Below, piece after piece: positions 1,227 to 60,491 of a stretch of 64,000 bases of DNA. Position numbers and translations under genes: made by a program. Below the pieces are notes generated by a model. That model worked only from the letters and a program-made list of their open reading frames with translations. It was not told where the DNA came from and did no database searches. Each line of letters begins with the position of its first letter. Position 1 is the stretch's first letter. The DNA comes from Candidatus Nanoarchaeia archaeon (GTDB lineage Archaea > Nanobdellota > Nanobdellia > Pacearchaeales > GW2011-AR1). Location: assembly GCA_028718805.1 (NCBI GenBank), contig JAQUKY010000001.1, positions 80,384 through 144,383 of the forward strand, written 5' to 3'.

Positions 1227-1301
1227 TGGCCCCAAGGGGATTTGAACCCCTGACACCTGCCTTAAGAGGGCAGTGCTCTAACCGGGCTGAGCTATGGAGC
1301 C
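1227..1301 (-). tRNA. tRNA-Lys (anticodon CUU), no encoded CCA
   Basis: The reverse complement folds as a cloverleaf: acceptor GGCTCCA/TGGGGCC, D stem GCTC/GAGC, anticodon stem CTGCC/GGCAG with loop CTCTTAA, T stem AGGGG/CCCCT with loop TTCAAAT, discriminator A. Confidence 0.9.
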
Positions 1302-1333: not shown

Positions 1334-1426
1334 ATGTTGATGACATAATAAATAAAACCAAATTAATAATATAAAAAACTAGTCAAGTTAAAATACAGAA
1401 GATTAAGCTGTTTAAGCAGGGGATTC

Positions 1427-1717
1427 TTATTTTGATTTTTCTTCTTGTTCTATCTCTAAAACCATGCCTGGGATTTCATCCATGACCTTTCTTAAAACTT
1501 CTTTTTCAGTTAGTTTTGGGTCTTCTCTTGAAATCTTAAAGGCTTTTGCCGCAGCAGCCACCATGCATCTTTTTACTTTTTCGTCTCTTATATCATCCAT
1601 TTCAGAGATGTAATCTGAAACATCTTGGAATACTTCTTCATCTATTGCAAGAGGATTTTGCTTTCGAAACTTAATCACTCTTGTTGCAGCTGAAATCATT
1701 TTTATTTTTTCTTCCAT
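1427..1717 (-). CDS. Hypothetical protein (96 aa, helical/acidic)
   Basis: Clean ORF preceded by ATATTTAAATA about 35 nt upstream of the ATG; no motif recognised. Confidence 0.45.
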   Translation of the reverse strand: MEEKIKMISAATRVIKFRKQNPLAIDEEVFQDVSDYISEMDDIRDEKVKRCMVAAAAKAFKISREDPKLTEKEVLRKVMDEIPGMVLEIEQEEKSK

Positions 1718-1792
1718 CTTTTTTGCATATATGAAAGCTTATTGAGCATATTTAAATATTATTGTAAATTATTATAAGAATTAATTGTGTTT

Positions 1793-1887
1793 TTTATTTA
1801 TAATCTATTAAACGATTTTAATCTTGAGCAATCATTTTCGCTTTGTGTTAATTGCCATAGCTTATTTAGTTTTATTTATTACTGATT
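1793..1887 (-). repeat. Intergenic cassette copy A
   Basis: Shares TTTATTTATAATCTATTAAACGATTTTAATCTTGAGCAATCAT and TAGTTTTATTTATTACTGATT arms with copies at 3311, 4906 (inverted), 12685, 40405, 42387 and 52589. Confidence 0.8.
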
Positions 1888-1900
1888 AAGGAATTAAGAA

Positions 1901-2209
1901 TTATTTATACACCCTCCAGGTATGCTTGCACTTGGTGCATCTGAAGAATTTGGTTTCTGCTTCGTCGCTTGAGCGTGTTTGCAAAGTCCAAAAACTAGCT
2001 TTATTATTCTTGCATTTTGGGCATTCTGCATCTACTTCTGGCAAAAAATTACTATCTTCTTCATTTATTACTGCTACCTGAGATTTTAATTTAATATTTT
2101 CAGAGGATTCCAGATTAATCTTGTCTTTTGATTTATATTCGCATCTTGGGCATTTAGAACTATCCCCATCCTTAATCATAACACAGCCACAATTTGGACA
2201 AAATTCCAT
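1901..2209 (-). CDS. tfs: Transcription factor S (TFIIS-type transcript cleavage factor), paralog 1
   Basis: N-terminal Zn ribbon CPNCG...CPRC. C-terminal TFIIS ribbon CPKC...QTRSSDEAETKFFRCTKCKHTW with the acidic DE pair. Confidence 0.9.
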   Translation of the reverse strand: MEFCPNCGCVMIKDGDSSKCPRCEYKSKDKINLESSENIKLKSQVAVINEEDSNFLPEVDAECPKCKNNKASFWTLQTRSSDEAETKFFRCTKCKHTWRVYK

Positions 2210-2378
2210 TAGAAATTTTGTTAATTTAGATTTATAAACTCTCCTTTTTTGAAATCTGTTAAATGGTTTAGTATGGTTGTTAGAAGACTAAGGTTTATGT
2301 GAGATTGTTTATTATTAACGAAGAATTATCTATACTCTCTCCAAATTTCATTTACAATATGTGTAAAAATAGAATAGT

Positions 2379-2900
2379 CTAATTAAGATTTTCTAGCTTA
2401 TTAATTTCAGTATCTCTATACTCTGATATTTTATTTATAATCATATCCAAGGTAGGTTTTGATTCTTCTTCTACAAAAAGTAAATATTCTGCAGAACTAA
2501 TTAAACTATTAATAAGTTCGGGTTGTCTAATGCCTCCACCATTCTGTTTTATGGATTCTAAAGATTCTTTAATATATTTAATTTTTTGTAAATATGCTTC
2601 TAAATAGATTCTTATCTCAGGAGTTCCAAAATTAATCTTCTCTCTTGCTTGATAAGTAATCGTTGTTTCTAATTTGTCTATTCTATATTTTTCTGTATCT
2701 TTTATTTCGTTTAGAGTAAGAATTTTATCTTTTAAAAATTGTTCATTAAATCTTAATTCTATTATTAAATTGTTTGCAAGAGCAATATTTTCTTCAATAT
2801 CTTTTTTTGGTGAATCTCCATTTATTGCAATGATAGTTACAATGATTGCAATAAGTGTAATAATGATACTAACAATCGTAATTTTGGCTTCAAGTTTCAT
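2379..2900 (-). CDS. Hypothetical N-terminally membrane-anchored helical protein
   Basis: TM segment ITIVSIIITLIAIIVTIIAI followed by a coiled-coil-like region. Confidence 0.45.
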   Translation of the reverse strand: MKLEAKITIVSIIITLIAIIVTIIAINGDSPKKDIEENIALANNLIIELRFNEQFLKDKILTLNEIKDTEKYRIDKLETTITYQAREKINFGTPEIRIYLEAYLQKIKYIKESLESIKQNGGGIRQPELINSLISSAEYLLFVEEESKPTLDMIINKISEYRDTEINKLENLN

Positions 2901-2959
2901 AATTTCCCTTAGAAAACAACTTATTTAATTTTTTCCTTTTTTATTTTTTACACATATTG

Positions 2960-3268
2960 TTACCTATACTCTCTCCAGGTATGCTTGCACTTAGTGCATC
3001 TGAAGAATTTGGTCTCGGCTTCATCTCCTGCTCGTGTCTGAGAAGTCCAGAAGTAAGCTTCTCCATTATTACACTTAGGACAGTTTGCATTTGTAACAGG
3101 GAAAACGTCTGTATCCTTTTCTTTTATTACCCCTATTTTGGGTTTTACTTGAATTTGTTCAGAAGTCTCAATTTTTACTTTTCCTTTTGCTTTATATCCG
3201 CATCTAGCACAGCCAAAATTTTTTGTCTTTTCTACTAATACGCACCCACATTTTGGACAAAATTGCAT
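2960..3268 (-). CDS. tfs: Transcription factor S, paralog 2
   Basis: Same architecture as paralog 1: CPKCG...CARCG and CPKC...QTRAGDEAETKFFRCTKCKHTW. Confidence 0.9.
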   Translation of the reverse strand: MQFCPKCGCVLVEKTKNFGCARCGYKAKGKVKIETSEQIQVKPKIGVIKEKDTDVFPVTNANCPKCNNGEAYFWTSQTRAGDEAETKFFRCTKCKHTWREYR

Positions 3269-3310
3269 TATGAGTTTTGTATACTACTATTTATAAATGT
3301 TTCCTCCTTT

Positions 3311-3427
3311 TTTATTTATAATCTATTAAACGATTTTAATCTTGAGCAATCATCCATAGCTTGATGTTAATTGCTGCTCACTATCTCGTTTTTTGTATTA
3401 TTGGTTTAGTTTTATTTATTGGTGATT
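3311..3427 (-). repeat. Intergenic cassette copy B
   Basis: The first about 45 nt are near-identical to copy A. The central arms GAGCAAT...ATTGCTGCTC are self-complementary. The right arm is TAGTTTTATTTATTGGTGATT. Confidence 0.8.
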
Positions 3428-3436
3428 TTTAAATTT

Positions 3437-4111
3437 TTATCTAAATGCATTAATGAATTCAGTGAACCATATTTTGGGCCAGCCGAGAAGGGGGATTTTG
3501 ATTATGGCCTTGCCAATAATCTGTTCTTGGGATATATGGGTTTCATCTGTTTTATAAATATTATTATCTTTTGTTAATTGTTTTCCATTATGATCTCCTT
3601 TTGTCTGATAAGTTCCATCCTCGTTTATTTTTACTATCCTGTGAATAATTGGTCTTGGCGCAGTTGAATCTGCATTTGGCCTGAAAATTATTATATCTCC
3701 TATTTTTGGAATGAATCTGCCCCAAACAATAATTACATCTCCTTTATTGAACCCATTTGTTAAAGAAAATTCTGAGAATTGCTCTTTTGATATATTTTTA
3801 TCTTTGTACCAGCCCCCGCATACCCCCCAGTATTTATCAAGATCAATATAACCAATTTCTTTTTTTTCATCACTGGAATAAATATTATCACATAATGTTA
3901 ACCTGTTATAATCATCATAAACAATCCGGTGGTCCATACTTGAACTTTCAACTCCTGCCAAAGGTAGTTCATTTCCAAAGATTAATGAAAGGGCTGGAAA
4001 AAAGATAAATTTAACTGCGACAAATATAATCACAAGAGCGACAATCCAGCTCCAGATTGAATCTGAATGCCAAACCCAGTGCCAGCCTTTTTTTATATCC
4101 TGAAAGTTCAT
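3437..4111 (-). CDS. Signal peptidase I, archaeal/Sec11 type (S26B)
   Basis: N-terminal TM helix. Ser box GVESSSMDH, His box PIIHRIV, and TKGDHN in place of the GDN box. Confidence 0.7.
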   Translation of the reverse strand: MNFQDIKKGWHWVWHSDSIWSWIVALVIIFVAVKFIFFPALSLIFGNELPLAGVESSSMDHRIVYDDYNRLTLCDNIYSSDEKKEIGYIDLDKYWGVCGGWYKDKNISKEQFSEFSLTNGFNKGDVIIVWGRFIPKIGDIIIFRPNADSTAPRPIIHRIVKINEDGTYQTKGDHNGKQLTKDNNIYKTDETHISQEQIIGKAIIKIPLLGWPKIWFTEFINAFR

Positions 4112-4484
4112 TTTATTATTTATAATTTATAACTTATAAATGCTGTGATTATAATGTGGAAGTAATACCCAATAGAAACACAGTTATCTGGGAAGTTAGG
4201 AACTATTAATCCTTATTTAAAATATATACTACAGAATCGAAAACTTTAAATAGTATATCTTTCCTGTATACACTGAAAGTATACACAATCTCCTTTCCAG
4301 CCATACTTTTGTATGGCTGTTCATACGTAACACCTCTTTATCCCCAGAAGAGCAAAGACAGGTATTTGCCTGAAACTGGCTCCTCTAGGGTTTAAATATC
4401 AATAATAAATAAAACGAAACGAACCTATAACATAAAATAGTTTAACATTACCAAAACAGAACATAAAAACAAAATAAAACAAAA

Positions 4485-4895
4485 ATGACAGACATCTTTA
4501 ACAACACAATTTTATGTGGGAAATGCAATATTAAAATGAAGCCCGTTGAGATACATAAAAATGGTTTTGTTTTAAGGGCAGTTATGTGCCCAAAATGCGA
4601 GTCAAAGATTATTCATCCTAAAGATGAGCAGGAATATAATAATTTTACTGATTTAAAAAAGAAAGAGTTTAATGTCAAGATGAGATTTGTTGGAAATTCA
4701 TATGCAGTTTCTATTCCAAAAGAAATTGTTGATTTTATGCAGGAACAGGAAAAAATAATGAATGAAATGGTAAGATTATCATTAGAAGAATTCGGGAGAA
4801 TCAGCTTAAGTTTTGGAAATCAAAATCATAATCATGAAAATGATAGGATAAGAGCAATAAAGGAATTAAAGGAAAAAAATAAGGAGGTTAATTAA
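4485..4895 (+). CDS. Zn-ribbon plus AbrB/SpoVT-like domain protein
   Basis: CGKC...CPKC ribbon followed by RFVGNSYAVSIPKEIVDFM (swapped-hairpin AbrB-like signature). Confidence 0.4.
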   Translation: MTDIFNNTILCGKCNIKMKPVEIHKNGFVLRAVMCPKCESKIIHPKDEQEYNNFTDLKKKEFNVKMRFVGNSYAVSIPKEIVDFMQEQEKIMNEMVRLSLEEFGRISLSFGNQNHNHENDRIRAIKELKEKNKEVN

Positions 4896-4905
4896 ATTTA
4901 TATCT

Positions 4906-4999
4906 ATAATAAATAAAAACGAAATACTCAAGAGCAATTTAACATCAAGCTATGAATGATTGCCCAAGATTAAAATCGTTTAATAGATTATTGATAAAC
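4906..4999 (+). repeat. Intergenic cassette copy C (inverted relative to A/B)
   Basis: Reads AATAAATAAAAACGAAAT...GAGCAATTTAACATCAAGCTATGAATGATTGCCCAAGATTAAAATCGTTTAATAGATTATTGATAAAC and ends 11 nt before the cdc48 ATG. Confidence 0.8.
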
Positions 5000-5009
5000 A
5001 AAAGACAAA

Positions 5010-7457
5010 ATGGCAATAACAGAAGAAAAAAGCCCTAAATTAAGAGTAAGCGAGGCATTGCAGGATGATGCATATAAAGGGATTGCTAGAATTGATTTTG
5101 AGATTATGAGGGAACTTGGGATTAAAAGGGGGGATGTTATTATGATTAAAGGAGGAAAAGAAACTGTTGCTATTGCTGATAAGGCTTATCCTGCAGATGT
5201 TGGAGAAGGAATTATCAGGATTGATGGAATTATAAGGAAGAATGCAAGAACAGGTGTTGGAGAAAATGTTATTGTGAAAAAAGCAGAAATAAAAGAAGCT
5301 AAGAAGGTTGTTATTGCTCCTGCCCAGAGAGGGATAATGATTCAGGGAAATTTAAAGCCAGGATTATTGGGAAGAGCTGTTGTTAAAGGAGATGTTGTTG
5401 TTCTAGGAGGAGTCAGGAGAAGAAGAGACCTTATGAGTGAGGATTTAGAAAATTTATTTGGCGGTTTTGAAGATATTTTTGGAGATGCTTTTGGCGGGAT
5501 GGGATTAGGAGGATTACAGCAGATTAGATTTTTAATAACAAATACAACCCCAAATACTCCATGTATAATAACTGAAAATACAGAAGTTGTATTCAGCAAC
5601 AAGCCAGTTGAGGTTTCTGAAGAAACTAATTTACCTGAAGTTACTTACGAAGATATAGGGGGGTTAAGTGAAGAAGTTAAAAAAGTAAGAGAGATGGTAG
5701 AGCTTCCTCTTAAACATCCAGAGATATTTGACAGACTTGGAATTGAACCCCCAAAAGGAGTTCTATTGCATGGTCCTCCTGGAACAGGAAAAACATTGTT
5801 AGCAAAAGCTGTTGCAAATGAAAGCGAGGCTAATTTTATTTTATTAAATGGACCCGAAGTAATGAGCAAGTTTTATGGAGAATCAGAAAAAAAAGTAAGA
5901 GACATTTTTGATGAAGCTGAAAAAAATGCACCTTCAATAATTTTCATAGATGAAATAGATGCAATTGCCCCTAAAAGAGAAGATGCTGGGGGAGAAGTTG
6001 AAAGAAGAGTTGTTTCTCAATTACTAACTATGATGGATGGTTTGCAGTCAAGAGGAAAGGTAGTTGTTATTGGTGCAACTAACAGGCCAAATTCTATTGA
6101 TGAAGCATTAAGAAGGCCAGGAAGATTTGACAGGGAAGTGGAACTCAGAGCTCCTGATAAAAAAGGCAGATTGCAGATTTTAAAAATTCATACAAGAAAC
6201 ATGCCTTTAACAAAAGATGTTGATTTAAATGCTTTGGCAGAAATAACTCATGGTTTTGTTGGTGCTGATATTTCTTCATTGGCAAAAGAAGCTGCAATGG
6301 TTGTGCTTAGGAGAGTCTTGCCTAAAATTGAATTAAAAGAAGGAGAATCAATCCCAGAAGAAGTTTTAAAAGAATTAAAAGTTTATAAAAAAGATTTTGA
6401 TGATGCCCTGAAAGTTGTCAGGCCTAGTGCAATGAGGGAAGTTTTAGTAGAAACCCCAAATATTAATTGGGAAGACGTTGGAGGATTAGATAATGTTAAA
6501 CAAGAATTAAAAGAAGTTGTTGAATGGCCATTAAAATATCCTGATTCATTTACACGCCTTGGAATACGTCCTCCGAGAGGAATTTTATTATATGGCCCTC
6601 CTGGAACAGGAAAAACATTGTTAGCAAAAGCTGTTGCAAAAGAGAGCGAAGCTAATTTTATTCAGGTTAAAGGCCCAAGCCTGCTTTCAATGTGGGTTGG
6701 GAAATCAGAAGAAGGAGTTAGGAAGATATTTGAAAGAGCTAGACAAGTAAGCCCGTGCATTATATTTTTTGATGAGATTGATGCTTTAGCAGGAAAAAGA
6801 GGAATTGAGCAAGGAACAAAAGTTACTGAAAGAGTTTTAAATCAAATATTAGCTGAAATGGATGGAATTGAAGACTTGTCAAATGTAATTGTTATCGGAG
6901 CAACTAACAGGCCAGATATGCTGGATGCGGCTTTATTAAGACCAGGAAGATTTGACAGAATTTTATTAACTCCTGCTCCTTCAAAAGAAGGAAGAGAAGA
7001 AATATTTAAGATTCATACTAAGAAGATGCCTCTTGCGTTAAGTAAACATGAAGTTGAAGATTTAGATAGAAGATTTAAGAATGCAAAAATAGAAAATATT
7101 ACTTCAAAAATGGCTGCTGATGAACCGATTAAGCAATCTGATTTAATCAATAAGAAAAAGAAGGAAATTGATTTTAAAGAATTATCAGATAGAGACAAAT
7201 TAATGTATTATATCTCCGAAAAAACAGAGGGCTTTGTTGGTGCTGACATGGAAGCGTTGATAAGAGAAGCTGCAATGCTTGCTTTAAGAGAGGATATTGG
7301 CGCTAAAGAAGTTAAAATGAGCAATTTTGAAGATGCTCTGAAAAAAGTAAGAGCAAGTGTCACAAAAGGGGACATTGAAAAATACAAAAGAATAGAAGAA
7401 GATTATTTGAGAAGTGCAAAGGCTGCTTTGGAAACTCCTGTGAGCTATTTGGGATAA
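5010..7457 (+). CDS. cdc48: Cdc48/VCP-type AAA+ ATPase (N domain plus D1 plus D2)
   Basis: Two Walker A motifs ([15 protein letters not shown], twice), two Walker B motifs ([16 protein letters not shown]) and an N-terminal double-psi-barrel-like region. D2 carries an extra segment. Confidence 0.95.
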
Positions 7458-8862: not shown

Positions 8863-10164
8863 TTATTTTAATTCATCAGTACTAACTATCCCTTTATCTA
8901 CCATTTCTTTAACAGCATCGTAAATAGAAGGCATTTTTTCTGCTCTATCTCCATTTAAATATCTAATTGCTTTGCCGGCACTTGCATCATCATCCCAGAT
9001 AAACTGCATAGCAGCTATTCTTCCAGGATATTCTTTTTTAGGGTCTTTTTCATAAGTTTTTTTTACAAGCCTTTGCCCTATTCCTCCCCTGAATACATCA
9101 GTGAGTTGTTCTGTTGATATTCCGGTATTTACAAGATAGTGTAATCCTGACAAAATATCTGGTGCGTCTAGAGAACCTATGACTGTTTTCCCCCTGCGTG
9201 CTGAATCTATTGCTGTCTCTGCAATTTCATACCTGCTTATGTCATCTAAATAGACTACATTTGGGTTGAATTGCTCTACTATTTTGGATATATTTTCAGG
9301 ATCTGTGTATTTTAGATTTGTGTCAACATGGTGGATTCCATCAGGTGTTCTCTCTCCACCAAATGCAACGATGAATTTGTCTGGGCGATTTACAATATCC
9401 AGGAGATTATGTGCGGTTGTGGTTTTTCCCTCACCAGGAAGCCCTGCAATAACTACTAACCCTCCTCCTTCTTTAAACAAGTCTTTTTTTATCTTCTCTT
9501 TTTTATCTTCTTCAAAAATAGAATTTTGATATTCTTTGTAGAATATCTTTACCCTATACTGATCTCCAAAAGGGGATTCTATTTTTGAAATTGTTAAAAT
9601 ATTTTTTGTAGTCTGTTTATTTCCTATCTCTCCCTTTACTGTTAATTCCTTCTGGGCTGTTTCTCCATATTTTAATAGCTTTGTTGCTTGAACATTTGTC
9701 TTTTTTCTAAGCCATTTTCCTGTTATAATTTTCTCTTCTTTAAGTTTTCCGAAAATGTTCTCAAGTTCTCCACCTAAAGCTTCGCCTATATGCCTTGGCG
9801 GAGGCACCATTTCATAGATAGTTCCCTGTATCTTATATCTCATTTTCATTTCATACTGAAAATTTTCAAAATAAATGTCACTTGCTCTGTCTCTTATAGC
9901 CTGCAAAAGAACTGAATTAAGTAATTTTTTAATTGGGTCGCCTTCTGCTAATACTTTTAATTCATCAAGGTCTACAGAATCATTTCTAAACATGCTCTCT
10001 ATCTCTCTTCCGGCTTCTGCTAATTCAGCAGCGGTTTCTTCAATATCTTCTATTATTTTTTTATCTTCCTCGTCACTGTCTTCGACTACTTCGAAGTAAG
10101 GAAAATTATATACTTCTTGATTATTTCCTTTTTCTCTTGGTTTACTATCTTCATCCATTTTCAA
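8863..10164 (-). CDS. GspE/PilB/PilT-superfamily secretion-ATPase-like protein with degenerate motifs
   Basis: LLNSVLLQAIRDRASDIYFE...MRYKIQGTIYE resembles the GspE N2 region. Walker A variant GLPGEGKTTT. The Walker B/His-box positions read VYLDDIS and GSLDAP instead of canonical residues. Confidence 0.55.
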   Translation of the reverse strand: MKMDEDSKPREKGNNQEVYNFPYFEVVEDSDEEDKKIIEDIEETAAELAEAGREIESMFRNDSVDLDELKVLAEGDPIKKLLNSVLLQAIRDRASDIYFENFQYEMKMRYKIQGTIYEMVPPPRHIGEALGGELENIFGKLKEEKIITGKWLRKKTNVQATKLLKYGETAQKELTVKGEIGNKQTTKNILTISKIESPFGDQYRVKIFYKEYQNSIFEEDKKEKIKKDLFKEGGGLVVIAGLPGEGKTTTAHNLLDIVNRPDKFIVAFGGERTPDGIHHVDTNLKYTDPENISKIVEQFNPNVVYLDDISRYEIAETAIDSARRGKTVIGSLDAPDILSGLHYLVNTGISTEQLTDVFRGGIGQRLVKKTYEKDPKKEYPGRIAAMQFIWDDDASAGKAIRYLNGDRAEKMPSIYDAVKEMVDKGIVSTDELK

Positions 10165-12224: not shown

Positions 12225-12668
12225 CTATTTTACTCTTCGCTCCCTTGGAACGAAGTTAGCGATTCTTTCGCCTGTAGATTTTCCACATCCAAGGAATTCG
12301 TTATTGTTTTTTAGTATTAGAAATCCTCTTTTTGTCTGGATATCCAGGTCATTCCCTCTTAACCAATCTTCTGCCTGATTATCATCAATTTCTATAATAT
12401 TTTTTGTAATCTGCTGCTTAAGAATCTGAATTCCATCCAAAGTTAATCTTATCCCATCTTTTTCTTCTTTTGCAAAGTATAATCCTATGTTTTCAATGTT
12501 TAATTTGGAGGCAAGAGTATTGAGCTCTTCATTTGACAGGCTTCCTGAATAAATTCTTATTTTATCTTCCCCAAATTTAATAAGAAGGTATGGAAGTTTG
12601 GATATTCCATACTGCTCATTGAGTTTTTCGATTATTTTCTTTTTTTCAGATGAATAAATGATTTTCAT
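12225..12668 (-). CDS. Putative PUA/NIP7-like RNA-binding protein
   Basis: Size (147 aa) and C-terminal GFLILKNNNEFLGCGKSTGERIANFVPRERR resemble pre-PUA/PUA proteins. Tentative. Confidence 0.35.
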   Translation of the reverse strand: MKIIYSSEKKKIIEKLNEQYGISKLPYLLIKFGEDKIRIYSGSLSNEELNTLASKLNIENIGLYFAKEEKDGIRLTLDGIQILKQQITKNIIEIDDNQAEDWLRGNDLDIQTKRGFLILKNNNEFLGCGKSTGERIANFVPRERRVK

Positions 12669-12684
12669 ATTTTTGTTTGTTTTT

Positions 12685-12774
12685 AGTAATTTATTAAACG
12701 ATTTTAATATGGATTCTGTTCATTAAGCTTATTATGATTGCTCCTTATTTTCTTAGTTTTATTTATTATTGGTT
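12685..12774 (-). repeat. Intergenic cassette copy D
   Basis: AGTAATTTATTAAACGATTTTAAT...GATTGCTCC...TAGTTTTATTTATTATTGG. Its right arm abuts the stop codon of the upstream gene. Confidence 0.7.
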
Positions 12775-13449
12775 TCATTTTAATTTTTCAAACTCCTTTT
12801 CCATGAACTCGTTAAATGTCATCTGGTAATATTTTCCATATTCTTTTGATACTCTTGTTCTTGGCCTGTACATGTCAAGAAAATCTACAACATCCGCCTT
12901 AAAATCATTATGTTTAATCCCCTGCATTGCTTTTAAAAATACTTCTGGGTGAATAACTGCAGAACCCATATTAATATAATGAAAAGGTTTCTGGAATCTT
13001 TCTTTAAGAAGTTTAAAATCCTTATTAGACCTGTTTGCTATCAGCCCCCAATCATCAGAAAGCAATTGCCAGTAATCGCAGGGCAGGGCTGTGAACAAAA
13101 GAACAGGGATATTTTTGTCTTCACAAAGCCTGGCAAGGGAACCTTCCGGAGCTGGTTTTTCTCCCCTTAACCAATCCCATAAATATAATCCTGAGTATTC
13201 TATTTTTTTAAGTGATTTATTTAATTCTGTTATTGGTACAGAGGTATATCCTTCTAAAGCCAGCTGAAAATCATGGAATAATGCTCCCCCATTATAGATA
13301 ATCATTTCTATATCATCAATGTTTTCTTTTAAGTGTTCATGTGCTCCTGTTTTTACAACTGCCCCGCCTATACCAATTATTTTTTTCATTTTTGCATTTT
13401 CCATGTTAATTAAACCATTTAGAATATTCAAATCTTTCTCTCCCTTCAT
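12775..13449 (-). CDS. Hypothetical protein (possible Rossmann-like fold)
   Basis: KKIIGIGGAVVKTG is a glycine-rich start. Distant resemblance to deoxyhypusine-synthase-like proteins is not convincing. Confidence 0.4.
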   Translation of the reverse strand: MKGEKDLNILNGLINMENAKMKKIIGIGGAVVKTGAHEHLKENIDDIEMIIYNGGALFHDFQLALEGYTSVPITELNKSLKKIEYSGLYLWDWLRGEKPAPEGSLARLCEDKNIPVLLFTALPCDYWQLLSDDWGLIANRSNKDFKLLKERFQKPFHYINMGSAVIHPEVFLKAMQGIKHNDFKADVVDFLDMYRPRTRVSKEYGKYYQMTFNEFMEKEFEKLK

Positions 13450-13981
13450 GAATAGTGATTATTGGAAGGCCTGCGTTTATGCATTGTATGTTCATCAGGA
13501 TTCTTCCAACCCTCCCATTGCCGTCTGTAAAAGGATGAAGTTTTTCAAAAACTATATGTTGTTTTTTAATATCATCATAACCTGCCACTTTTTTATAAGA
13601 GGTAATCCAGTTGTCAAGCTTTTTTATTAATTCTGTTTCAGAGTGTTTGGGTATCCTGTCATATTCTATATAAATTGCACCATAAAGCTGGTCATTACCG
13701 GCCGGGAAAATTGTTTTCAGGGCCCCGATATTAGCAGCGCAATCCCTTAATTTTCCTGCAATTTTTGGGTTAATCCTTTGCATCAGTATCTTATGAATGT
13801 TCAGGATGTAATCAACTGTGATAGCATCTTTATGCTTAACAGCATAAATCCATGACTTTTTAGAGTCTTCCAGAGCTTCTTCTGAATACTCCTCTTCAAT
13901 ATAATTTGAATTTCTTAGGAATTCTACAATTTCCCAGGCTATTTTTTCTTCAAGCTTTTTTCCTTGTTTTTGCTTTATCAT
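13406..13981 (-). CDS. Fic-domain protein (AMPylase family)
   Basis: Canonical Fic motif HPFTDGNGRVGR (HPFxxGNGRxxR). N-terminal SNYIEEE resembles the inhibitory (S/T)xxxE(G/N) helix. Confidence 0.85.
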   Translation of the reverse strand: MIKQKQGKKLEEKIAWEIVEFLRNSNYIEEEYSEEALEDSKKSWIYAVKHKDAITVDYILNIHKILMQRINPKIAGKLRDCAANIGALKTIFPAGNDQLYGAIYIEYDRIPKHSETELIKKLDNWITSYKKVAGYDDIKKQHIVFEKLHPFTDGNGRVGRILMNIQCINAGLPIITIHEGRERFEYSKWFN

Positions 13982-14946
13982 TTTAATTTTTTTATCTTGC
14001 AGACAAAAAATCCCTCCATGTCATTGTCATGATGATAAATCCTGCATGCTTTTTGGATTTCTTCGCTGAATTTTTTATTTTTCCATTTTGTTATTCCTGG
14101 CCTGCTTTTTATTGGCAGTTTAATTGTTTCGATTTTTATCTTATCTTTATAAGTGTTCAATAGGTGCTGTATAACTTCTTCATTTTCTTCAGGAGCATAA
14201 GAGCAGGTACTATAAACCATCTCTCCATTTTCTTCTAAAAGCTGAAATGCAGCTTCTGCTATTCTTTTTTGTTTGCCTGATAATTTGTTTAAAAGTCCTT
14301 CACTCCAGTTAAGATAAGTGCTTGGGCTTAGTCTTATGTTTCCTTCTCCTGAACATGGAGCATCAACTAAAATTTTATTAAACTTCATGTTTAGCTCTTT
14401 TAATTTTTTAGACAATTGCAGGAAGTCATGCCTTGTTATTATTGTGTTGGTTATTCCCTGCCTTTCTAGATTTGCAGAAAGAATTGAAATCCTCCCTATT
14501 GACAGGTCATTTGCAATGATTATACCTTTATTTTCCATTAAAGCAGCTGCCTGGGTTGTCTTGCTTCCCGGAGCTGCGCAACAATCCAGAAAAATATCAT
14601 TTTTGTCAAGGTTTAATGCGATTACCGGCATCATAGAAGTAATTTCCTGGATATAATAATAACCTAAAAGATGCTCTTTTGTTTTTCCCGATTCTCCTGG
14701 CTGTAAACTACTTTCTATAATCATAATTTCTTTTTGACCTGGAAGAGGTTGAGAGATTTTCCAGCCTTTTTCTTCAAGCCTTTTTATCAATTCTTCTGGC
14801 GAAATTTTTATTGTATTGCATCTAAAAGCCTTTTTTGGCTGTGTCTTAGCTGATTCAAAAAAAACTTTTATGTCTTCTTTATTATCATTCAGCAACTTGC
14901 TTATTCTTTCTACAAATGCAGGTTTTGGTTCATAATTTGTTTTCAT
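13978..14946 (-). CDS. NOL1/NOP2/Sun-family RNA (cytosine-C5) methyltransferase
   Basis: SAM motif DCCAAPGSKT, catalytic Cys motifs VDAPCSGEG and YSTCS. Confidence 0.9.
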   Translation of the reverse strand: MKTNYEPKPAFVERISKLLNDNKEDIKVFFESAKTQPKKAFRCNTIKISPEELIKRLEEKGWKISQPLPGQKEIMIIESSLQPGESGKTKEHLLGYYYIQEITSMMPVIALNLDKNDIFLDCCAAPGSKTTQAAALMENKGIIIANDLSIGRISILSANLERQGITNTIITRHDFLQLSKKLKELNMKFNKILVDAPCSGEGNIRLSPSTYLNWSEGLLNKLSGKQKRIAEAAFQLLEENGEMVYSTCSYAPEENEEVIQHLLNTYKDKIKIETIKLPIKSRPGITKWKNKKFSEEIQKACRIYHHDNDMEGFFVCKIKKLK

Positions 14947-15160
14947 TTTATATTGAAAACAAATATCTTCTTAAATTAATCGATTTGAATTTTGATAATT
15001 TTTAGTAATTCTTAAAGACGATTTAAGGCAGGATTTAGCAGAACAAGCTTGGTGTGAGATTTTTTTATTATATGGGCCTTTTGTAATTTAATATTAAATA
15101 AAGTTAAAGATTATAATCTTTCTCATAAATCCTTTTAAATCTAGGATAAATCTTAAAAAT

Positions 15161-19119: not shown

Positions 19120-19145
19120 TTTTTCATTTGGATATCCTCTTAACT

Positions 19146-19164
19146 TAGTGTATATTTTACACTA
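19146..19164 (-). promoter_or_regulatory. Predicted NrtR-type operator fused to the TATA box (nadK-nadD-nrtR promoter)
   Basis: Minus strand reads ATTTAAATAGTGTAAAATATACACTAAG. It has perfect 7-bp arms TAGTGTA/TACACTA with a 5-nt spacer, immediately 3' of TTTAAATA. Confidence 0.6.
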
Positions 19165-19219
19165 TTTAAATCTTTGTATACTGCAGTACATACTTTTAAT
19201 TTTTTATCTGCAATAATTT

Positions 19220-33332: not shown

Positions 33333-33746
33333 TTATTTTTTACCTCCTTCATTTACAAACATCATCTGCATTTTTCCTACTATATCCGGCGTCTCAACTT
33401 TATTTAGAAAACATCCTGTCTGATAAAATTCAATTATTTCTCCTTGAGGGTCATAAACATCGCCTTGTAAAAGCCTTCTTGCAGTTACATGCCATCCGTC
33501 AGGGTAGATATCATAAGGTCCGTGTCCTGTACCTCCTCCGCCATAATAAGTTTTTTCAACAACATACCTTGCTTTTTCTCTTTCTTGGTCTATATGCCCC
33601 CTAAATTTCATAGGGCCTGCTACATTAAAGCGTCCTTTTTGAAATAGATTAGGATTTTCTATAATTCCTTCTATTCCGACTTGTGGGATTTTTATTACAT
33701 CCCCTATCTGGACTAGTTTTTGTTTTGTTAGTGTATTATTTAACAT
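33333..33746 (-). CDS. Hypothetical protein (137 aa), first gene of the NAD operon
   Basis: Gly-rich loop YYGGGGTGHGPYDIYPDGWH; no family recognised. Confidence 0.5.
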   Translation of the reverse strand: MLNNTLTKQKLVQIGDVIKIPQVGIEGIIENPNLFQKGRFNVAGPMKFRGHIDQEREKARYVVEKTYYGGGGTGHGPYDIYPDGWHVTARRLLQGDVYDPQGEIIEFYQTGCFLNKVETPDIVGKMQMMFVNEGGKK

Positions 33747-33750
33747 AAGT

Positions 33751-33769
33751 TAGTGTAGTAAATACACTA
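33751..33769 (-). promoter_or_regulatory. Predicted NrtR-type operator fused to the TATA box (main NAD operon promoter)
   Basis: Minus strand reads GTTTAAATAGTGTATTTACTACACTAACTTATG. It has the same arms and 5-nt spacing as the site at 19146. The palindrome lies between the TATA box and the ATG, which implies a leaderless mRNA. Confidence 0.6.
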
Positions 33770-33871
33770 TTTAAACCTATGTGTACTAGAGAATACATAT
33801 TGTTAGAGTTAAACTAAGATTGAAAATTACCGAGAATATGCCTTAAAATTACATACACTAAGGAGGATAAA

Positions 33872-37946: not shown

Positions 37947-40397
37947 CTAAAACTCTCCCAGCTTTTTTTGTTTGCTTCCATCTGCAATTTCTTTTATGTT
38001 TATATTGAAAACCTCAAATATGTTTTCAACTGCTGGCAGAATCTGATTGTTCAGATAATAATTTATGTTATACTCTCCTTTTTCATCAGGGAGCTTTACT
38101 TTTTCCCTGACAAGCTTTTTTTCTTTTTCGCTCCTTACCTCGGCTATAAAATATTCAACCAGCATGCCGATGTCTATCGGTTTCCCTGCTTCTTTTATTT
38201 TTCTTGCAGCTATCACGTGGGGGGTTATTGCCTTATATTCATCAATTGATTTTTTTAACTGGGTTCTTATAAGGACTTCTTTAATCTCAATCTCCCTATT
38301 TTTAATTTTCCTTATCACATTCTTAACATATTCCAGTGCTTTTTGCTCGTTTCCATCATTTAAAATTAAATGTAAAACTTTATTCTGGGTCTCTCTTGCA
38401 AGATTGCACCAGTCTCTTCTTACTGTTTCAAAACCTCTTATTTTTATTTTATTCTCCTCGTTTATTAATGCATATTTCTTTTTTGCCCCAAACTCTCCTG
38501 TTCTTTTTGTGACCCAAATACCTCTTTTATAAAAATCTTCCAAATCCAGTTCCATTATTCCCGGAAGATTTTTATTGATTTCTTTTAATAATTCAAGAGT
38601 CTGAGGTTTTGTGTGAGCATTTAACTTAAAAGCAACGCTGTCTGTGTCAGAATATACGACCTGATACTCTTCTTTGTTTATTTTGTCAATCACCTGCTTT
38701 ATATTCTGCCTTGCAAAATAAGCAGTTGATGCAGCAGCCTCCAGGCAATAATATCTTGCCCCGAAAAATCCCTGATAGCCATATGCTGCATTTGCAATTA
38801 ATTTATAGGCATTGCTCCTTACTTTTGTTATGGGGTTTGGATTTTTCTTGTACTCTTCCTTATACTGTTTCCTTTTTTCTATTATCTCACCTAACAATAT
38901 GGGAAAAAAACCTGGCTTTTTTAAAAAATAAACTTTTTTATTCCCTAATTCTCCTTGATATACATTTTTTTTGTCTTTTGTTAAAGTTGATAAAGAGAGG
39001 TTGTATGATACAATCACACTTGCGTACATGCTTGTAAAATCAAAAAAAGAAATATTTTCATATAATCCTGGAACAGGCTGGAAAACAAAAGCTCCTTCAT
39101 ATTTTTCTCTTTGCATCCTTTTTCCTATTTCATCGCGCATAGGCCTTTTTTCAGGGATTTCATTAAATCTTTCTAAATTATGAATTACTAAATCTTCAAA
39201 ATCTCCTGCCATTGTGCTCCTTGAAACGTTGAACAAGGGCTCTCCAACAATTTTTGTAATCTCCATAAGGTCAGGGAATAATTTTTCAGTAAGCTTGTAG
39301 GTTAATGCAGAATCCTGGAGATTATAGTCAAAATAGTCCTCCCATTCATGTTTTTTTACTTTTGCAGAATGTTTATGTTCCCATTCATGTTTTTTCTCCC
39401 CTAAAAGCTCATTTGAAACTTCGTTTAAAGAGAGAGTTTCTGACTGGAGGTACTGGGAATAGGCATTCTGGATAAACCTCAGCAAGTCAATATGAACAAT
39501 CCCTTTTATTTTTCCTGTTAATAACCTGCCTCTTGAAAAACTTGGCTGGGAGTTATCTATTCCAAGATTTAATTTCATACTCTTTTTTTCAGCTCTTGCC
39601 CTTAAATAAGGCAGGTCAAATCCGTCTGAAAAATAACCAACTAAAATGTCAGGAGAGTATTGCTTTACATATTTTACAAAAGCTTCTAACATGTCTGCTT
39701 CATCTTTAAAGCATTCAACAAAGTTCTGGTCTGAACAGTGTTTCCAGGTCAGAACTTTCCTGAAATTTTCCCCAACAAGGGAAATCATTACAATTTCCCC
39801 CTTTCCTATTTCAAATTCATCTGCTTCAATATCATAAGCAAGTATCTTTGGTTTGAATTCCTGTTTTTCTGTTTCAGTAATCTTATTAACTTTTAAACAT
39901 AGATCAACATCAAGCGAGTTAATTATATTCCCAAAATCATTGTCTGTTAAAACCTCTCCTTCAATTTTATACCAATTAAGAGGTTTAAGCTTTTTTTCTA
40001 TGATATACTGGGTTATATACCCCAAATCGTAACCTCTTCTTTTATTTACTTCTTTCATTCCTATTTCATCTGCAATTGAATGAGCATCTTTGTAATTTGT
40101 GATAAATATTTTAATTGCATTTACATCCTGCCCTAAAAATTTCTTGTCATGAAGCTCTGTCCTTATAACCCTTGATTTTCTTAGTTTATCATTTACTTCT
40201 ATTTTCTCTATTTTTTCTCTTATTTGCTTAATTTTTAAATCACATGTTTTTGGCTTTAAAACTGCCCAAAAATAAGGTTCAAAACTGTCAATTATACAGA
40301 TTCTTTTTCCCTTGTCATCTCTGCCGATTATTTTTGCATAATTTTTTTCCTGCCAGTCAAAATAATCATAGTCTATTGGGATGAATTGTATTTGCAT
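37947..40397 (-). CDS. polB: DNA polymerase, family B
   Basis: Exo I AYDIEAD, Exo III YNLQDSALTY, motif A FDFTSMYASVIV, motif B KLIANAAYGY, motif C VYSDTDS. No intein. Confidence 0.95.
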   Translation of the reverse strand: MQIQFIPIDYDYFDWQEKNYAKIIGRDDKGKRICIIDSFEPYFWAVLKPKTCDLKIKQIREKIEKIEVNDKLRKSRVIRTELHDKKFLGQDVNAIKIFITNYKDAHSIADEIGMKEVNKRRGYDLGYITQYIIEKKLKPLNWYKIEGEVLTDNDFGNIINSLDVDLCLKVNKITETEKQEFKPKILAYDIEADEFEIGKGEIVMISLVGENFRKVLTWKHCSDQNFVECFKDEADMLEAFVKYVKQYSPDILVGYFSDGFDLPYLRARAEKKSMKLNLGIDNSQPSFSRGRLLTGKIKGIVHIDLLRFIQNAYSQYLQSETLSLNEVSNELLGEKKHEWEHKHSAKVKKHEWEDYFDYNLQDSALTYKLTEKLFPDLMEITKIVGEPLFNVSRSTMAGDFEDLVIHNLERFNEIPEKRPMRDEIGKRMQREKYEGAFVFQPVPGLYENISFFDFTSMYASVIVSYNLSLSTLTKDKKNVYQGELGNKKVYFLKKPGFFPILLGEIIEKRKQYKEEYKKNPNPITKVRSNAYKLIANAAYGYQGFFGARYYCLEAAASTAYFARQNIKQVIDKINKEEYQVVYSDTDSVAFKLNAHTKPQTLELLKEINKNLPGIMELDLEDFYKRGIWVTKRTGEFGAKKKYALINEENKIKIRGFETVRRDWCNLARETQNKVLHLILNDGNEQKALEYVKNVIRKIKNREIEIKEVLIRTQLKKSIDEYKAITPHVIAARKIKEAGKPIDIGMLVEYFIAEVRSEKEKKLVREKVKLPDEKGEYNINYYLNNQILPAVENIFEVFNINIKEIADGSKQKKLGEF

Positions 40398-40404
40398 TTT
40401 GGTT

Positions 40405-40500
40405 TTTATCAGTAATATTTAATACGATTTTAAGATGGGGCAATTAGGCATGGCTTAATCTCAATTGCTCCTTATTATTTTCGTTTTACACATTATCAAT
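40405..40500 (-). repeat. Intergenic cassette copy E
   Basis: TATCAGTAATATTTAATACGATTTTAAG...GGGGCAATT...AATTGCTCC...TTTTCGTTTTACA, directly upstream of polB. Confidence 0.65.
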
Positions 40501-40557
40501 TATTTAAAGTTATTAAAGAAAGATAAAGTGTTATTTAAAATTTGGGGTATGATAAGA

Positions 40558-42367: not shown

Positions 42368-42386
42368 TGATTTTAATCTATTTTTT

Positions 42387-42467
42387 GGTAATTTATTAAA
42401 CGATTTTAAGTTTTGTTTGAGTGGCTTAATTGTTTATGAGTTTTTAGTTTAGTTATTTATTACTGAT
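42387..42467 (-). repeat. Intergenic cassette copy F (in a convergent intergenic region)
   Basis: GGTAATTTATTAAACGATTTTAAG...TTAGTTTAGTTATTTATTACTGATT, located between two 3' ends. Confidence 0.7.
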
Positions 42468-42508
42468 TTTTAGAATAGTAGTCCTGATTATATTCTAGAA
42501 TTTGTTTT

Positions 42509-42721
42509 TTAATATCTCTGTGCTTTGTATCTTGATCTGAGACTTATTACTAATAGTATACCAATCACTATTAGAATTATCTGATAAATTATTTCTCCAG
42601 GAACAAGGTATGAAAGAATACCTGATGAAAAATAATTTTTTATGCTTTCAATTTTTGAGAGCATTGGAAGTATTGCTACTAATATTAATATTACCCCCAA
42701 AAATTTTTCTTTAATTGGCAT
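42509..42721 (-). CDS. Small membrane protein (70 aa)
   Basis: Two hydrophobic helices. One nt separates it from the upstream gene. Confidence 0.4.
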   Translation of the reverse strand: MPIKEKFLGVILILVAILPMLSKIESIKNYFSSGILSYLVPGEIIYQIILIVIGILLVISLRSRYKAQRY

Positions 42722-44067: not shown

Positions 44068-44346
44068 TTTCGCCCCTTTCTTATTATCCTTAATTTAGCA
44101 TTATTTATAAATATTGTTGATTTCATAAAAACAATATTTATACTGGTATAACTGGTAATTTGATAAACGAAAACTATAATGTATAAAATTAACGATTTTG
44201 GTAATGTCAAAGACGAAGTAAGGTGTAATTGATAAGAGCAAAAGATGTGATAGAGAAGCTTAATCTCATTTATATCACCTTGAAATAGTTTATTAGATCA
44301 CCAATAAACAAATTAAATAACCAAAAAATAAACAACAAAATCAAAT

Positions 44347-52440: not shown

Positions 52441-52588
52441 TTTTTGTTTTCTTTCTTTTTTATTTATGCTTTATCAATAATCTATAACTCTGTTCGCTTT
52501 GTAGATGAGGAGATTAGCTTTATTCTCAGTAGCTTGTTCTTCTCATATATACTCTGTTTAGTATTTATCTATTACTAATTTAATCATT

Positions 52589-52683
52589 TAGTAATGTATT
52601 AGACGATTTTCATATGAAGCAATCATTTTAAAACTTCTTGCTCAATTGCCTATTATTATTTCGTTCTTATTTATTACTAATTT
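52589..52683 (-). repeat. Intergenic cassette copy G
   Basis: TTAGTAATGTATTAGACGATTTTCAT...GAAGCAATCAT...CTTGCTCAATTGCC...CTTATTTATTACTAATT. Confidence 0.65.
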
Positions 52684-53976: not shown

Positions 53977-54020
53977 GATTGCCCAAGCGATATAAAGTTG
54001 ATTATTACCGATAAATAAAG
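53977..54020 (+). repeat. Partial cassette copy H (promoter-proximal arm only)
   Basis: GATTGCCCAAGCGATATAAAGTTGATTATTACCGATAAATAAAG. Compare copy C: GATTGCCCAAGATTAAAATCGTTTAATAGATTATTGATAAACAAAAG. Confidence 0.55.
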
Positions 54021-54026
54021 AATAAA

Positions 54027-54461
54027 ATGACAAAAATAAAAGAACTAACACCAAGACAGGGAAATGTTAATGTAGAAGGAGTTATAACTGAGGTTGGAGA
54101 AGCAAGGACATTTAACAAATTTGGCAGGCCATTGGTTGTTGCAAATGCAATATTAAAGGATGATTCTGGAAGTGTTAAACTGACTTTGTGGAATGATGAT
54201 GCAGGCAGATATAAAGCTGGAGATAAAATTAAGGTTACAAATGGTTATGTCGGGGAATTCCAGGGAGAAAAACAATTAACATCAGGGAAGTTTGGGAAAA
54301 TCGAGAAAGTTGGAGAAGGTGAGATAGAAGAGAATGTTGATGAGAAAGCAGAAGTTTCTGCAGATGATGAAGAATTGGAAGATGCTCCTGTTGCAGAAGT
54401 TATTGAAGAAGAAGCAGAAGAGCCTGAAGGCGTAGAAAAGATTGAGGAAGAAGAGTTTTAG
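54027..54461 (+). CDS. ssb: Single OB-fold ssDNA-binding protein with acidic tail
   Basis: OB core VNVEGVITEVGEARTFNKFGRPLVVANAILKDDSGSVKLTLWND plus a Glu/Asp-rich C-terminal tail, similar to crenarchaeal-type SSB. Confidence 0.75.
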   Translation: MTKIKELTPRQGNVNVEGVITEVGEARTFNKFGRPLVVANAILKDDSGSVKLTLWNDDAGRYKAGDKIKVTNGYVGEFQGEKQLTSGKFGKIEKVGEGEIEENVDEKAEVSADDEELEDAPVAEVIEEEAEEPEGVEKIEEEEF

Positions 54462-54536
54462 ATTTATTTTTGAGTGATTTTTATTTATAATAGATATTTA
54501 TCTTTTAATTTTGTTAGAAAGAAATTATAATTACTA

Positions 54537-60154: not shown

Positions 60155-60491
60155 ATTAGAATAGGAAGAAAGGGTGAATTTGTTTTATAAAGATTATTAT
60201 GGTGATATGTAATCTTTATTAGGGATTAGAAATGTGTCTGTTGTTTTTCCCTCTATTTTTTAGTTTATATTCCTAATTTATAATCTTATCCGCTTTGGCT
60301 TATGTTCTCATAGCGTTAAAGAGTTTTTTTATTAAGGATTTAGTTTTTTAGCAGCTTAAGCTTGATGTTATTTTTGAGATGAATCTTTCTTCAGAGTGTT
60401 TAACTACATAGTGCATATCATTGTCTTTGGCAAGTTTCATGAGTTCACAGAATGTATCAGCTATAATCCCTATTTTTTCTGCACTTTTTTT

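Follow-up and report, generated by a model that had tools for sequence, protein, structure and literature searches.

The DNA considered here, a stretch of 64,000 nucleotides from the genome of a Candidatus Nanoarchaeia archaeon (contig JAQUKY010000001.1; hereafter "the window"), carries between its genes several copies of a repeated element, which is called the cassette in the following. The cassettes form a real and lineage-specific family of dispersed intergenic elements of ~100 bases. Judging from its sequence, the cassette would be a dispersed, recombining and imperfectly palindromic unit, and we regard it as an even call whether its main job is that of a portable core promoter. For one end of the unit a more definite assignment can be offered: the left arm is quite likely the core promoter of the neighboring gene, composed of a B recognition element (BRE) and a TATA box. 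In a preliminary description of this DNA the cassette was thought to reach up to the promoter of the next gene; more precisely, there is a good chance that the left arm itself is this promoter and does not merely adjoin one. To our knowledge, almost nothing is known about the transcription signals of Pacearchaeota and other uncultured DPANN archaea, and a literature search found no paper on Pacearchaeota promoters or intergenic repeats.

A lineage-specific family of imperfect palindromes

The seven full copies reported in the preliminary description are each a significant match to their own profile (nhmmer E 1.2e-9 to 2e-23). They align over ~100 columns with the invariant blocks TAAT-n-TATTAAACGATTTTAA, GCTT, AATTG, and TTATTA, and a profile made from them matches exactly these seven in the window (E 1e-9 to 2e-23). 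The iterated profile delimits them as listed in Table 1, with copy 2 at 3309-3409, and adds three diverged copies with E-values of 7e-5, 8.5e-4, and 0.01, the last of which is borderline; in 20 locally shuffled windows the best E-value was 0.006, and most were above 0.3. The consensus strings given earlier for the arms are indeed over-represented in the window: the left-arm string TATTAAACGATTTTAA has 14 matches (five of them exact) vs 4.95 expected, and the right-arm string has five vs 0.07 expected. The partial copies fared unevenly. The one at 44155-44320 is real, inverted (E 7e-5) and has an orthologous copy in L097 (L-numbers denote the related metagenome loci examined), and the one at 15003-15060 is likewise real and extends over 14998-15082 (E 8.5e-4), while those at 53977-54020 and about 60270-60390 are mere fragments with a few common words (E >1). 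Three further members had escaped the first listing, namely a diverged copy at 52472-52581 (E 0.01), a core-less mini copy at 4391-4460 on the minus strand, and a right-arm fragment at 1359-1411 on the same strand. The copies lie 1.5-28 kb apart in both orientations, and are neither a CRISPR array nor a tandem repeat, as had been stated; doubled units are found solely for the ~21 nt right-arm unit and, occasionally, for the whole cassette.

The family extends beyond the window. When metagenome contigs were scanned with the 21-mer TAATNTATTAAACGATTTTAA, 67 loci were found, of which ~44 carry the whole cassette and 23 are unrelated. The ~44 carrier contigs have 27-33% G+C and are Pacearchaeota-like DPANN, and several of them harbor 2-5 copies. 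The same scan of the GTDB representative genomes gave 28 single chance matches, in unrelated bacteria only, and that of viral contigs gave three, all of them unrelated coincidences of the left arm only, with no copy of the cassette. In total, 74 profile matches were obtained in 45 sequences (window included), and 58 non-redundant copies from the window and the metagenome contigs were taken for the analyses below. The density of the cassette is ~1 per 6-9 kb.

Because the genome has 32% G+C and TATA-like words are common to all promoters, the similarity might reflect merely generic AT-rich promoter composition. This is ruled out by the profile statistics: E-values go down to 1e-23 vs the best value of 0.006 in the shuffled windows. 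Moreover, the cassette is found at only ~10 of the ~79 gene upstream regions of the window, the other promoters having TTTATAAA without common flanks, and the same architecture of ~100 nt recurs in ~44 independent metagenome contigs. Next to no probability is thus left to an explanation by composition.

Each copy is 95-120 bp in size and is an imperfect palindrome centered on an AGCT box. In the orientation of the preliminary description ("element +"), it consists of a T-rich flank, the left arm (AT)YWR-TAAT-n-TATTAAACGATTTTAAG, a variable core, and the right arm CTTAT-YTCGTTTTTATTTATTAYTGATT, the last being doubled in copy 2 and many relatives. The most conserved block, TAATnTATTAAACGATTTTAAG, reaches 90-100% per column. 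Two subtypes of the core recur across genomes: subtype A is GAAGCAATCAT..CATAGCTTGATGTTAATTGCC..ATAGCTTA, and subtype B is AAGCTTTG(ATT/CAGA)TGAGCAGATTAAGCTTCTC, with a 5′ half of ~44 nt identical at different loci and a variable 3′ half. AGCT-centered words of the cores (CATAGC, TAGCTT, TTAAGC) are enriched 20-50 times, and the spacing of the AGCT boxes is mostly 20-22 bp. Reverse-complemented, the consensus of the right arm reads AATCARTAATAAATAAAA(CGA) and is similar to the left arm. As inverted repeats, the two arms are imperfect, weak and AT-rich, covering ~15-20 bp ((AT)YWR-TAAT-WWAT-WAAACGA vs TCGTTT-WAT-WW-ATTA-YWR(AT)). Copy 5 is matched by the profile on its reverse strand too (E 1.6e-6), and arm-to-arm folding is seen in copies 3, 5, and 7.

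Some observations on related sequences may be added here. The AGCT/AAGCTT boxes were considered as islands of an avoided restriction site, and this was rejected since both words occur at the expected frequency in the window. Upstream of a PolB gene in L098 (family-B DNA polymerase, 64% identical to that of the window), four CTTAA/GCTTA words are arrayed with a spacing of 10-11 bp upstream of the TATA box (9915-9960); no cassette was detected there, and the array may be related to the box of the cassette. Related contigs contain another repeated hairpin element, AAAGCATTT..N..AAATGCTTT(T) (L031 7586-7625, L037 12301-12337, L062 3725-3763, and L102 2-41), of which the window has no copy. In some cases this element is joined to the core of the cassette, where it replaces the promoter arm.

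The left arm as a predicted core promoter

The ordinary promoters of the window provide the frame in which the left arm can be read. The first gene of a transcription unit is preceded by a TTTATAAA-like box, 21-23 nt away from its ATG, with RAAAnn at the BRE position and no Shine-Dalgarno sequence, and GGAGG is found on internal operon genes. This is the archaeal leaderless pattern; in archaeal leaderless genes the promoter box is located 22-26 nt before the start (PMC6028130).

On the opposite strand, the left arm reads CTTAAAATCG-TTTAATAR-ATTAC, in which AAAATCG is a BRE-like heptamer and TTTAATAR a TATA-like octamer. In 32 of the 58 copies (55%), the ATG of an open reading frame of at least 45 amino acids is found on the opposite strand 18-47 nt from the anchor, vs 8.2% at random positions of the same sequences (p = 3.7e-20). 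The distance from the octamer to the ATG has its main mode at 20-23 nt and matches that of the TTTATAAA promoters of the window; it is 23, 22, and 19 nt in copies 3, 4, and 5, respectively. In position, the left arm thus conforms to the archaeal BRE/TATA leaderless promoter. For example, in copy 4 it has AAAATCG-TTTAATAA (12691-12705, minus strand) ahead of the ATG of a PUA-domain gene (12225-12668, minus strand; Pfam match PF13636), and in copy 5 AAAATCG-TATTAAAT (40417-40431, minus strand) ahead of the ATG of the PolB gene (37947-40397, minus strand).

The flanks of the octamer bear on the direction of firing. AAAATCG is invariant and lies on its gene-distal side, and the ATAAT-type sequence on the other side could serve as well. 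The conserved sequence continues for ~10 nt on the CGATTTTAAG side, where the BRE would be expected if the promoter fires into the gene. If it fired away from the gene, the region from the TATA box to the start site would be conserved to an unusual degree. The genes downstream include those for CDC48, PolB, PCNA, RPA, Spt4, and the ribosomal proteins L13, L29, S9, and S24e (the last in three contigs), as well as a class I aminoacyl-tRNA synthetase, GatA, Dus, RuBisCO, MinD, and others. Since such diverse housekeeping genes are served, the cassette would represent a general promoter type, not a narrow regulon, and it is probably a strong one.

Several points weigh against this assignment. Only about half of the copies stand at the leaderless distance. 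The genes downstream of copies 1 and 2 are 54-87 nt away and have their own nearer TATA box, and copy 6 points into the 3′ end of a convergent gene, with nothing to drive. At the PolB loci of three relatives (PolB 83%, 72%, and 64% identical) the cassette is absent and other promoters are found, and in L102, the closest relative with a PolB of 85% identity, the upstream sequence amounts to only 137 nt and has a core-like remnant and no cassette. The ~44 nt of the subtype B core that are identical across loci are more than a core promoter needs, and the distal arm, a mirror image, has no evident use in co-directional spacers. Finally, the TATA-like box is symmetric, by which the direction of firing is unprovable from sequence alone.

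If the left arm is nevertheless taken as the promoter, the following working of the cassette may be proposed. TBP and TFB would assemble on the gene-proximal arm, and RNA polymerase would start ~20-25 nt downstream of it; in half of the copies this start point would be the ATG or a few bases before it, giving a leaderless mRNA. The remainder of the palindrome would then be located upstream of the promoter, at about -40 to -120; it presents one to three AGCT-centered boxes (CATAGCTTGATG, ATTAAGCTT) ~20-21 bp apart, a phasing of two helical turns, flanked by GCAAT/ATTGC or TGAG/CTCA inverted repeats. Most simply, these boxes may be protein-binding sites or the pairing core of a fold-back. The distal arm is a T-rich mirror image of the promoter arm, sometimes tandemly repeated, whose T5-6 runs would stop wrong-way transcription from the symmetric TATA box and might thereby insulate. 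Copies would spread and be homogenized by duplication and recombination between one another, and then be inherited vertically.

A bolder version can be conceived, which we consider rather improbable: a recombining or formerly mobile palindrome would have been domesticated as the standard "plug-in" promoter of at least a tenth of the transcription units of a reduced DPANN genome, including those for ribosomal proteins, PolB, PCNA, and CDC48. The phased AGCT boxes would be an array for a lineage-specific global regulator, and/or each cassette would fire divergently and yield a short T-strand RNA with a variable, locus-specific segment.

Copies in the window and their surroundings

Table 1. Cassette copies, fragments and a proposed promoter in the window
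Feature	Position	Strand	Match and remarks
Copy 1, subtype A core	1791..1889	+	nhmmer E 7e-20 (own profile), 2e-16 (iterated)
Copy 2, subtype A core; the copy singled out in the preliminary description	3309..3427	+	nhmmer E 6.8e-23
Copy 3, inverted	4901..4999	-	nhmmer E 2e-23
Proposed CDC48 core promoter, within copy 3	4972..4986	+	AAAATCG (BRE-like) + TTTAATAG (TATA-like), 23 nt to ATG 5010
Copy 4	12678..12774	+	nhmmer E 3.4e-15
Copy 5	40402..40501	+	nhmmer E 1.7e-21; quasi-symmetric
Copy 6, subtype B-like core, weakest full copy	42379..42468	+	nhmmer E 1.2e-9
Copy 7	52588..52682	+	nhmmer E 3.5e-18
Diverged copy, tandem to copy 7	52472..52581	+	E 0.01, borderline (1 of 20 shuffles reached 0.006)
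Diverged copy	44199..44310	-	iterated profile E 7e-5
Diverged copy, upstream of NOL1/NOP2/Sun-like gene 13978-14946(-)	14998..15082	+	E 0.017 (own profile), 8.5e-4 (iterated)
Core-less mini copy	4391..4460	-	right-arm unit 4397-4417, ~10 nt, left-arm-like box 4432-4447
Fragment: core box (CAGCTTAATC) and two right-arm units	1359..1411	-	E 0.37
Solo right-arm-like unit	54459..54479	+	3 mismatches; begins at the stop codon of 54027-54461(+), sense

The settings of the copies in the window are various (Table 1). According to the preliminary description, the cassette fills the whole spacer between co-directional genes, from the stop codon of one to the promoter of the next. Copies 3 and 4 conform to this, and copies 2 and 5 do so roughly. 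Copy 6 is found between convergent genes, and copy 7 and the copy at 44.2 kb between divergent ones. Copy 3 occupies the spacer from the stop of the gene 4485-4895(+) to CDC48 (5010-7457, plus strand), and it folds as a full-length imperfect palindrome (z = -2.3). The right arm of copy 4 abuts the stop codon (12775-12777) of the gene 12775-13449(-). In copy 1, the left arm TAATCTATTAAACGATTTTAA is located 87 nt upstream of the ATG of the gene 1427-1717(-), which has its own nearer TATA box, and a gap of 13 nt separates the right arm from the stop of a TFS gene (1901-2209, minus strand). The left arm of copy 2 is 54 nt upstream of another TFS gene (2960-3268, minus strand) with its own TTTATAAA box, and its two tandem right-arm units cover ~3385-3406 and 3407-3427. 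These TFS/RpoM-type zinc-ribbon paralogs are 72% identical in DNA and 1 kb apart; both have their own, similar TTTATAAA promoter regions and are adjoined by cassette copies.

There are more complicated cases. Copy 6 is placed between the convergent genes for FEN1 (41333-42367, plus strand) and 42509-42721(-), with its promoter arm running antisense into the 3′ end of FEN1. Copy 7 is in the divergent spacer between 51142-52440(-) and 52818-53882(+), immediately downstream of its diverged tandem copy, in which the core is of subtype B (TTGTAGATGAGGAGATTAGCTT) and the ACGATTTTAAG part is missing from the left arm. The copy at 44199-44310 is likewise in a divergent spacer, between 43369-44067(-) and a TYW2/Trm5-like gene (44347-45126, plus strand), and its promoter arm is directed towards the latter; the orthologous copy in L097 is at 3553-3653 (E 4.6e-14). 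Near the copy at 14998-15082 there is a second left-arm-like box (14974-14989, three mismatches). The mini copy is upstream of the gene 4485-4895(+), and the fragment at 1359-1411 follows the gene 1427-1717(-) in sense orientation, upstream of tRNA-Lys(CTT) (1227-1301, minus strand), an archaeal-type tRNA gene of 60% G+C in this genome of 32% G+C.

The window itself has 30-35% G+C and encodes archaeal information-processing proteins: the two TFS paralogs, CDC48, PolB, FEN1, and the RFC small subunit. The nearest homologs of its PolB are 64-85% identical and all metagenomic, and where they are named they are called Candidatus Pacearchaeota or Nanoarchaeota, by which the source is placed with the DPANN archaea of the Pacearchaeota type; a look-up for an exact match of this PolB gave none. 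Inteins are found in PolB, CDC48, and a DUF87 ATPase of the relatives L097 and L102, and the orthologs in the window are without them. Two operon promoters, at 19141-19182 and 33746-33787, have TTTAAATAGTGTA-N7/8-TACACTAA in common, a palindrome (AGTGTA..TACACT) directly downstream of the TATA box, which is a candidate for a shared operator. The promoter region of the gene 43369-44067 (~44075-44135) is nearly identical to L097 3655-3715, in a relative whose protein is 34-53% identical; it holds an inverted repeat, ATATTGTT..AACAATAT, beside TTTATAAATAAT, a further candidate operator. GATC is scarce across the window, with 49 occurrences vs ~179 expected from trinucleotide frequencies, and the remaining 4-bp palindromes occur about as often as expected; a restriction-modification system specific for GATC may thus exert pressure here.

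Terminator, RNA, and mobile-element readings

Three roles had been proposed for the cassette, namely a modular terminator-promoter unit, a small RNA gene family, and an element similar to a miniature inverted-repeat transposable element (MITE). The promoter half of the first is well supported by the 32 of 58 copies at the leaderless distance vs 8% at random; the terminator half, as it was meant, is not. By this proposal the hairpin and the right arm would end the upstream gene and the left arm would start the next. The core is capable of forming a hairpin, in six of the seven copies in the window 0-60 nt separate the right arm from the stop of the co-directional gene upstream, and solo right-arm units stand in sense orientation right after stop codons at 1361-1381 and 54459-54479. 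In archaeal termination, however, oligo-T is in the non-template strand, and the cassette is A-rich on the gene-sense strand: of the 58 copies, 44 have a run of five or more T on the element strand, which is the antisense strand of the flanking genes, and only three have one on the gene-sense strand. Since the T runs are on the antisense strand, the cassette does not terminate the upstream gene. Stand-alone right-arm units are in sense orientation after a stop in only 3 of 17 cases, showing no preference, and a terminator-promoter unit is therefore very unlikely.

The same T runs could have a meaning on the T-rich strand. In this reading, small RNA genes of ~40-70 nt would be fired divergently from the symmetric TATA box and ended by the oligo-T right arm, the core giving specificity. 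Indeed, the TATA-like box is nearly symmetric (TTTATTAAA vs TTTAATAAA), an ATAAT-type sequence lies before it on the element strand (some of the window's ordinary promoters have one too), a CA dinucleotide is found at the expected start distance (~+21), and the T runs of the 44 copies follow 60-100 nt downstream. The conserved 5′ and variable 3′ halves of subtype B are in line with this, as are copy 6 and the tandem copies, which have no gene to drive. At the level of RNA structure, however, the results are negative. The core is self-complementary, as first described: GCAAT/ATTGC and CATC/GATG are 74% paired, vs 27-48% with a slid partner. The claim that the pairings change compensatorily did not survive, because the covariation score of the stem (tested as GRGCAAT/ATTGCYC + CATC/GATG) was 0.123 and thus lower than the mean of the shuffles (0.169), of which 497 out of 500 reached at least this value. 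RNAalifold on the copies yielded -0.85 kcal/mol with no consensus structure and no compensatory pair. On the element strand, folding with the own 3′ half was no better than with halves from other copies (p = 0.51-0.72); an outer helix TAAGnT/AnCTTA, attractive by eye, and a hairpin around the central box both failed this partner permutation (p = 0.72 and 0.51, respectively). G.U-compatible and A.C cells numbered 19 vs 20, favoring neither strand, and the minimum-free-energy folding z-scores of the cores are weak, with a mean of -0.5. The stem is thus a conserved DNA inverted repeat, not a covarying helix.

Searches for known RNAs agree with this. Rfam 15 at gathering thresholds found only tRNA in the whole window, and at E<=5 found no match over 1700-5100. 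In C/D box small RNAs the C box (RUGAUGA) and the D box (CUGA) stand close to the 5′ and 3′ ends, respectively, with C′/D′ boxes inside and guides of ~12 nt; on inspection, the aligned copies had no more than TGAG/GATGAG words, which vary, and a CTGA, present in roughly half of the right arms, all at the wrong spacing. Hammerhead and K-turn readings of the GATGAG/CTGA words were likewise dismissed on inspection, as boxes and spacings are inconsistent. In addition, the core diverges fast at orthologous sites while the promoter arm is kept, as seen in the S24e copies. A small RNA gene family, for which neither Rfam, covariation, wobble asymmetry, nor folding offers positive support, is accordingly held to be unlikely.

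The possibility of mobility is bound up with the history of the copies. Copies 1, 2, and 3 all lie within 3.2 kb; 1790-1835 (copy 1) and 3308-3353 (copy 2) are 100% identical over 46 nt and diverge beyond, and a stretch of 63 nt is shared at 92% identity by copies 2 and 3. The identity between most copies is only 65-75%. Tandem cassettes are found at 52472-52682 and in L084. The identity between copies is mosaic, as expected from recombination or gene conversion, and not uniform as from insertion of whole units. Some copies are old: in the divergent spacer on the TYW2 side, the window and L097 have a copy in the same orientation, with right arm and flank conserved and the proteins ~73% identical, and a subtype A copy precedes S24e in three contigs. 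Upstream of PolB, a copy is found in the window only, its relatives having none, and the gene order differs there. At L102 48-90, upstream of the intein-containing PolB (85% identical), there is a remnant of the cassette core whose central loop is inverted, with ACATCAAGCTAG in place of CATAGCTTGATGT between the GAAGCAAT and AATTGCC arms; by its sequence, this would be the signature of a small palindrome-mediated inversion.

A non-autonomous MITE-like element would explain part of this picture, if its inverted repeats contained, or were co-opted as, an outward TATA/BRE promoter and if copies near start codons persisted as promoters. Its imperfect inverted arms of ~15-20 bp, the size of ~100 bp, the intergenic location and the density agree with it, as do the subfamilies, solo arms, tandem copies and near-identical local copies, copy 6 at a place where a promoter is useless, and the presence upstream of PolB in the window as against the absence in relatives. 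An automated census found a very high density of MITEs, 105 per Mb, in a Woesearchaeal DPANN genome (PMC11602168). On the other hand, of the features of a MITE only the terminal inverted repeats are found. Inspection of the boundaries of the 58 aligned copies revealed no matching direct repeat as a target-site duplication, and neither the window nor ~0.5 Mb of related loci showed a parent insertion sequence (IS), a longer element or a transposase gene with the same arms. The 65-75% likeness of most copies argues against a recent burst, the mosaic identity for recombination instead of whole-unit insertion, and the retention of copies at orthologous sites across ~27% protein divergence for old age; no copy is present in the viral contigs, and random insertion would not predict the exact leaderless spacing of 55% of the copies. 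We therefore regard a MITE-like origin as doubtful, though less so than a small RNA family.

Relation to known elements and meaning

Known repeats offer analogies of function. Correia elements (CREE/NEMIS) of Neisseria contain sigma-70 type promoters, a TA target duplication, well-conserved inverted repeats of 26 bp, and an IHF site. Like the cassette, they are dispersed intergenic repeats of ~100-150 bp in many copies, with inverted-repeat arms, a possible long hairpin, and outward promoters in the arms that drive adjacent genes, which is predicted for the cassette. Unlike them, the cassette is archaeal, has BRE/TATA at the leaderless distance, shows no duplication, has weaker arms, and shares no sequence similarity. 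ERIC and the pneumococcal BOX and RUP are similarly imperfect intergenic palindromes of ~100-130 bp in tens to hundreds of copies, partly at orthologous sites, modular or mosaic, and with no clear ongoing mobility; BOX, for example, is composed of the modules A, B, and C with variable repeats of B. They have no sequence similarity to the cassette, and these bacterial elements are usually discussed as transcribed elements acting at the RNA level and are not known as a housekeeping core promoter. The bacterial families, Correia included, are each defined by a consensus of their own, and Correia by its TA duplication as well. By analogy, the cassette appears to work like Correia, ERIC, and BOX, which are functionally the closest, but is not a member of them.

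Among archaeal elements, the canonical BRE/TATA promoter of leaderless genes is similar in that an octamer rich in A and T stands ~22-26 nt ahead of the start (PMC6028130) and immediately follows an A-rich element, which in the cassette would be the BRE-like heptamer. The cassette differs in having a block of ~23 nt that is almost invariant across unrelated genes and is embedded in a palindrome of ~100 bp. The usual promoters of the window differ from it as well, having TTTATAAA where the cassette has TTTAATAR. Archaeal MITEs (SM1-SM4 of Sulfolobus; those catalogued in DPANN, PMC11602168) resemble it as short, non-coding, dispersed intergenic repeats with inverted ends, but they have a parent IS and target duplications, neither of which was found for the cassette.

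The cassette is of moderate interest as it stands, and would be of more if its boxes were an array for a global regulator or if the T-strand RNA exists. A promoter carried on a dispersed, recombining palindrome would be an archaeal parallel to Correia and ERIC in bacteria. With an invariant BRE/TATA-like block of 23 nt at the leaderless distance from core housekeeping genes, the cassette offers a testable promoter class, and the profile can be used as a marker for contigs of this lineage, for the correction of start codons, and for the choice of templates in transcription or reporter experiments. If the AGCT boxes bind a factor, a global regulon would exist in a minimal genome. And if the "plug-in" promoter were true, it would mean a genome-wide standardization of promoters or a small-RNA family of a kind not yet described in archaea.

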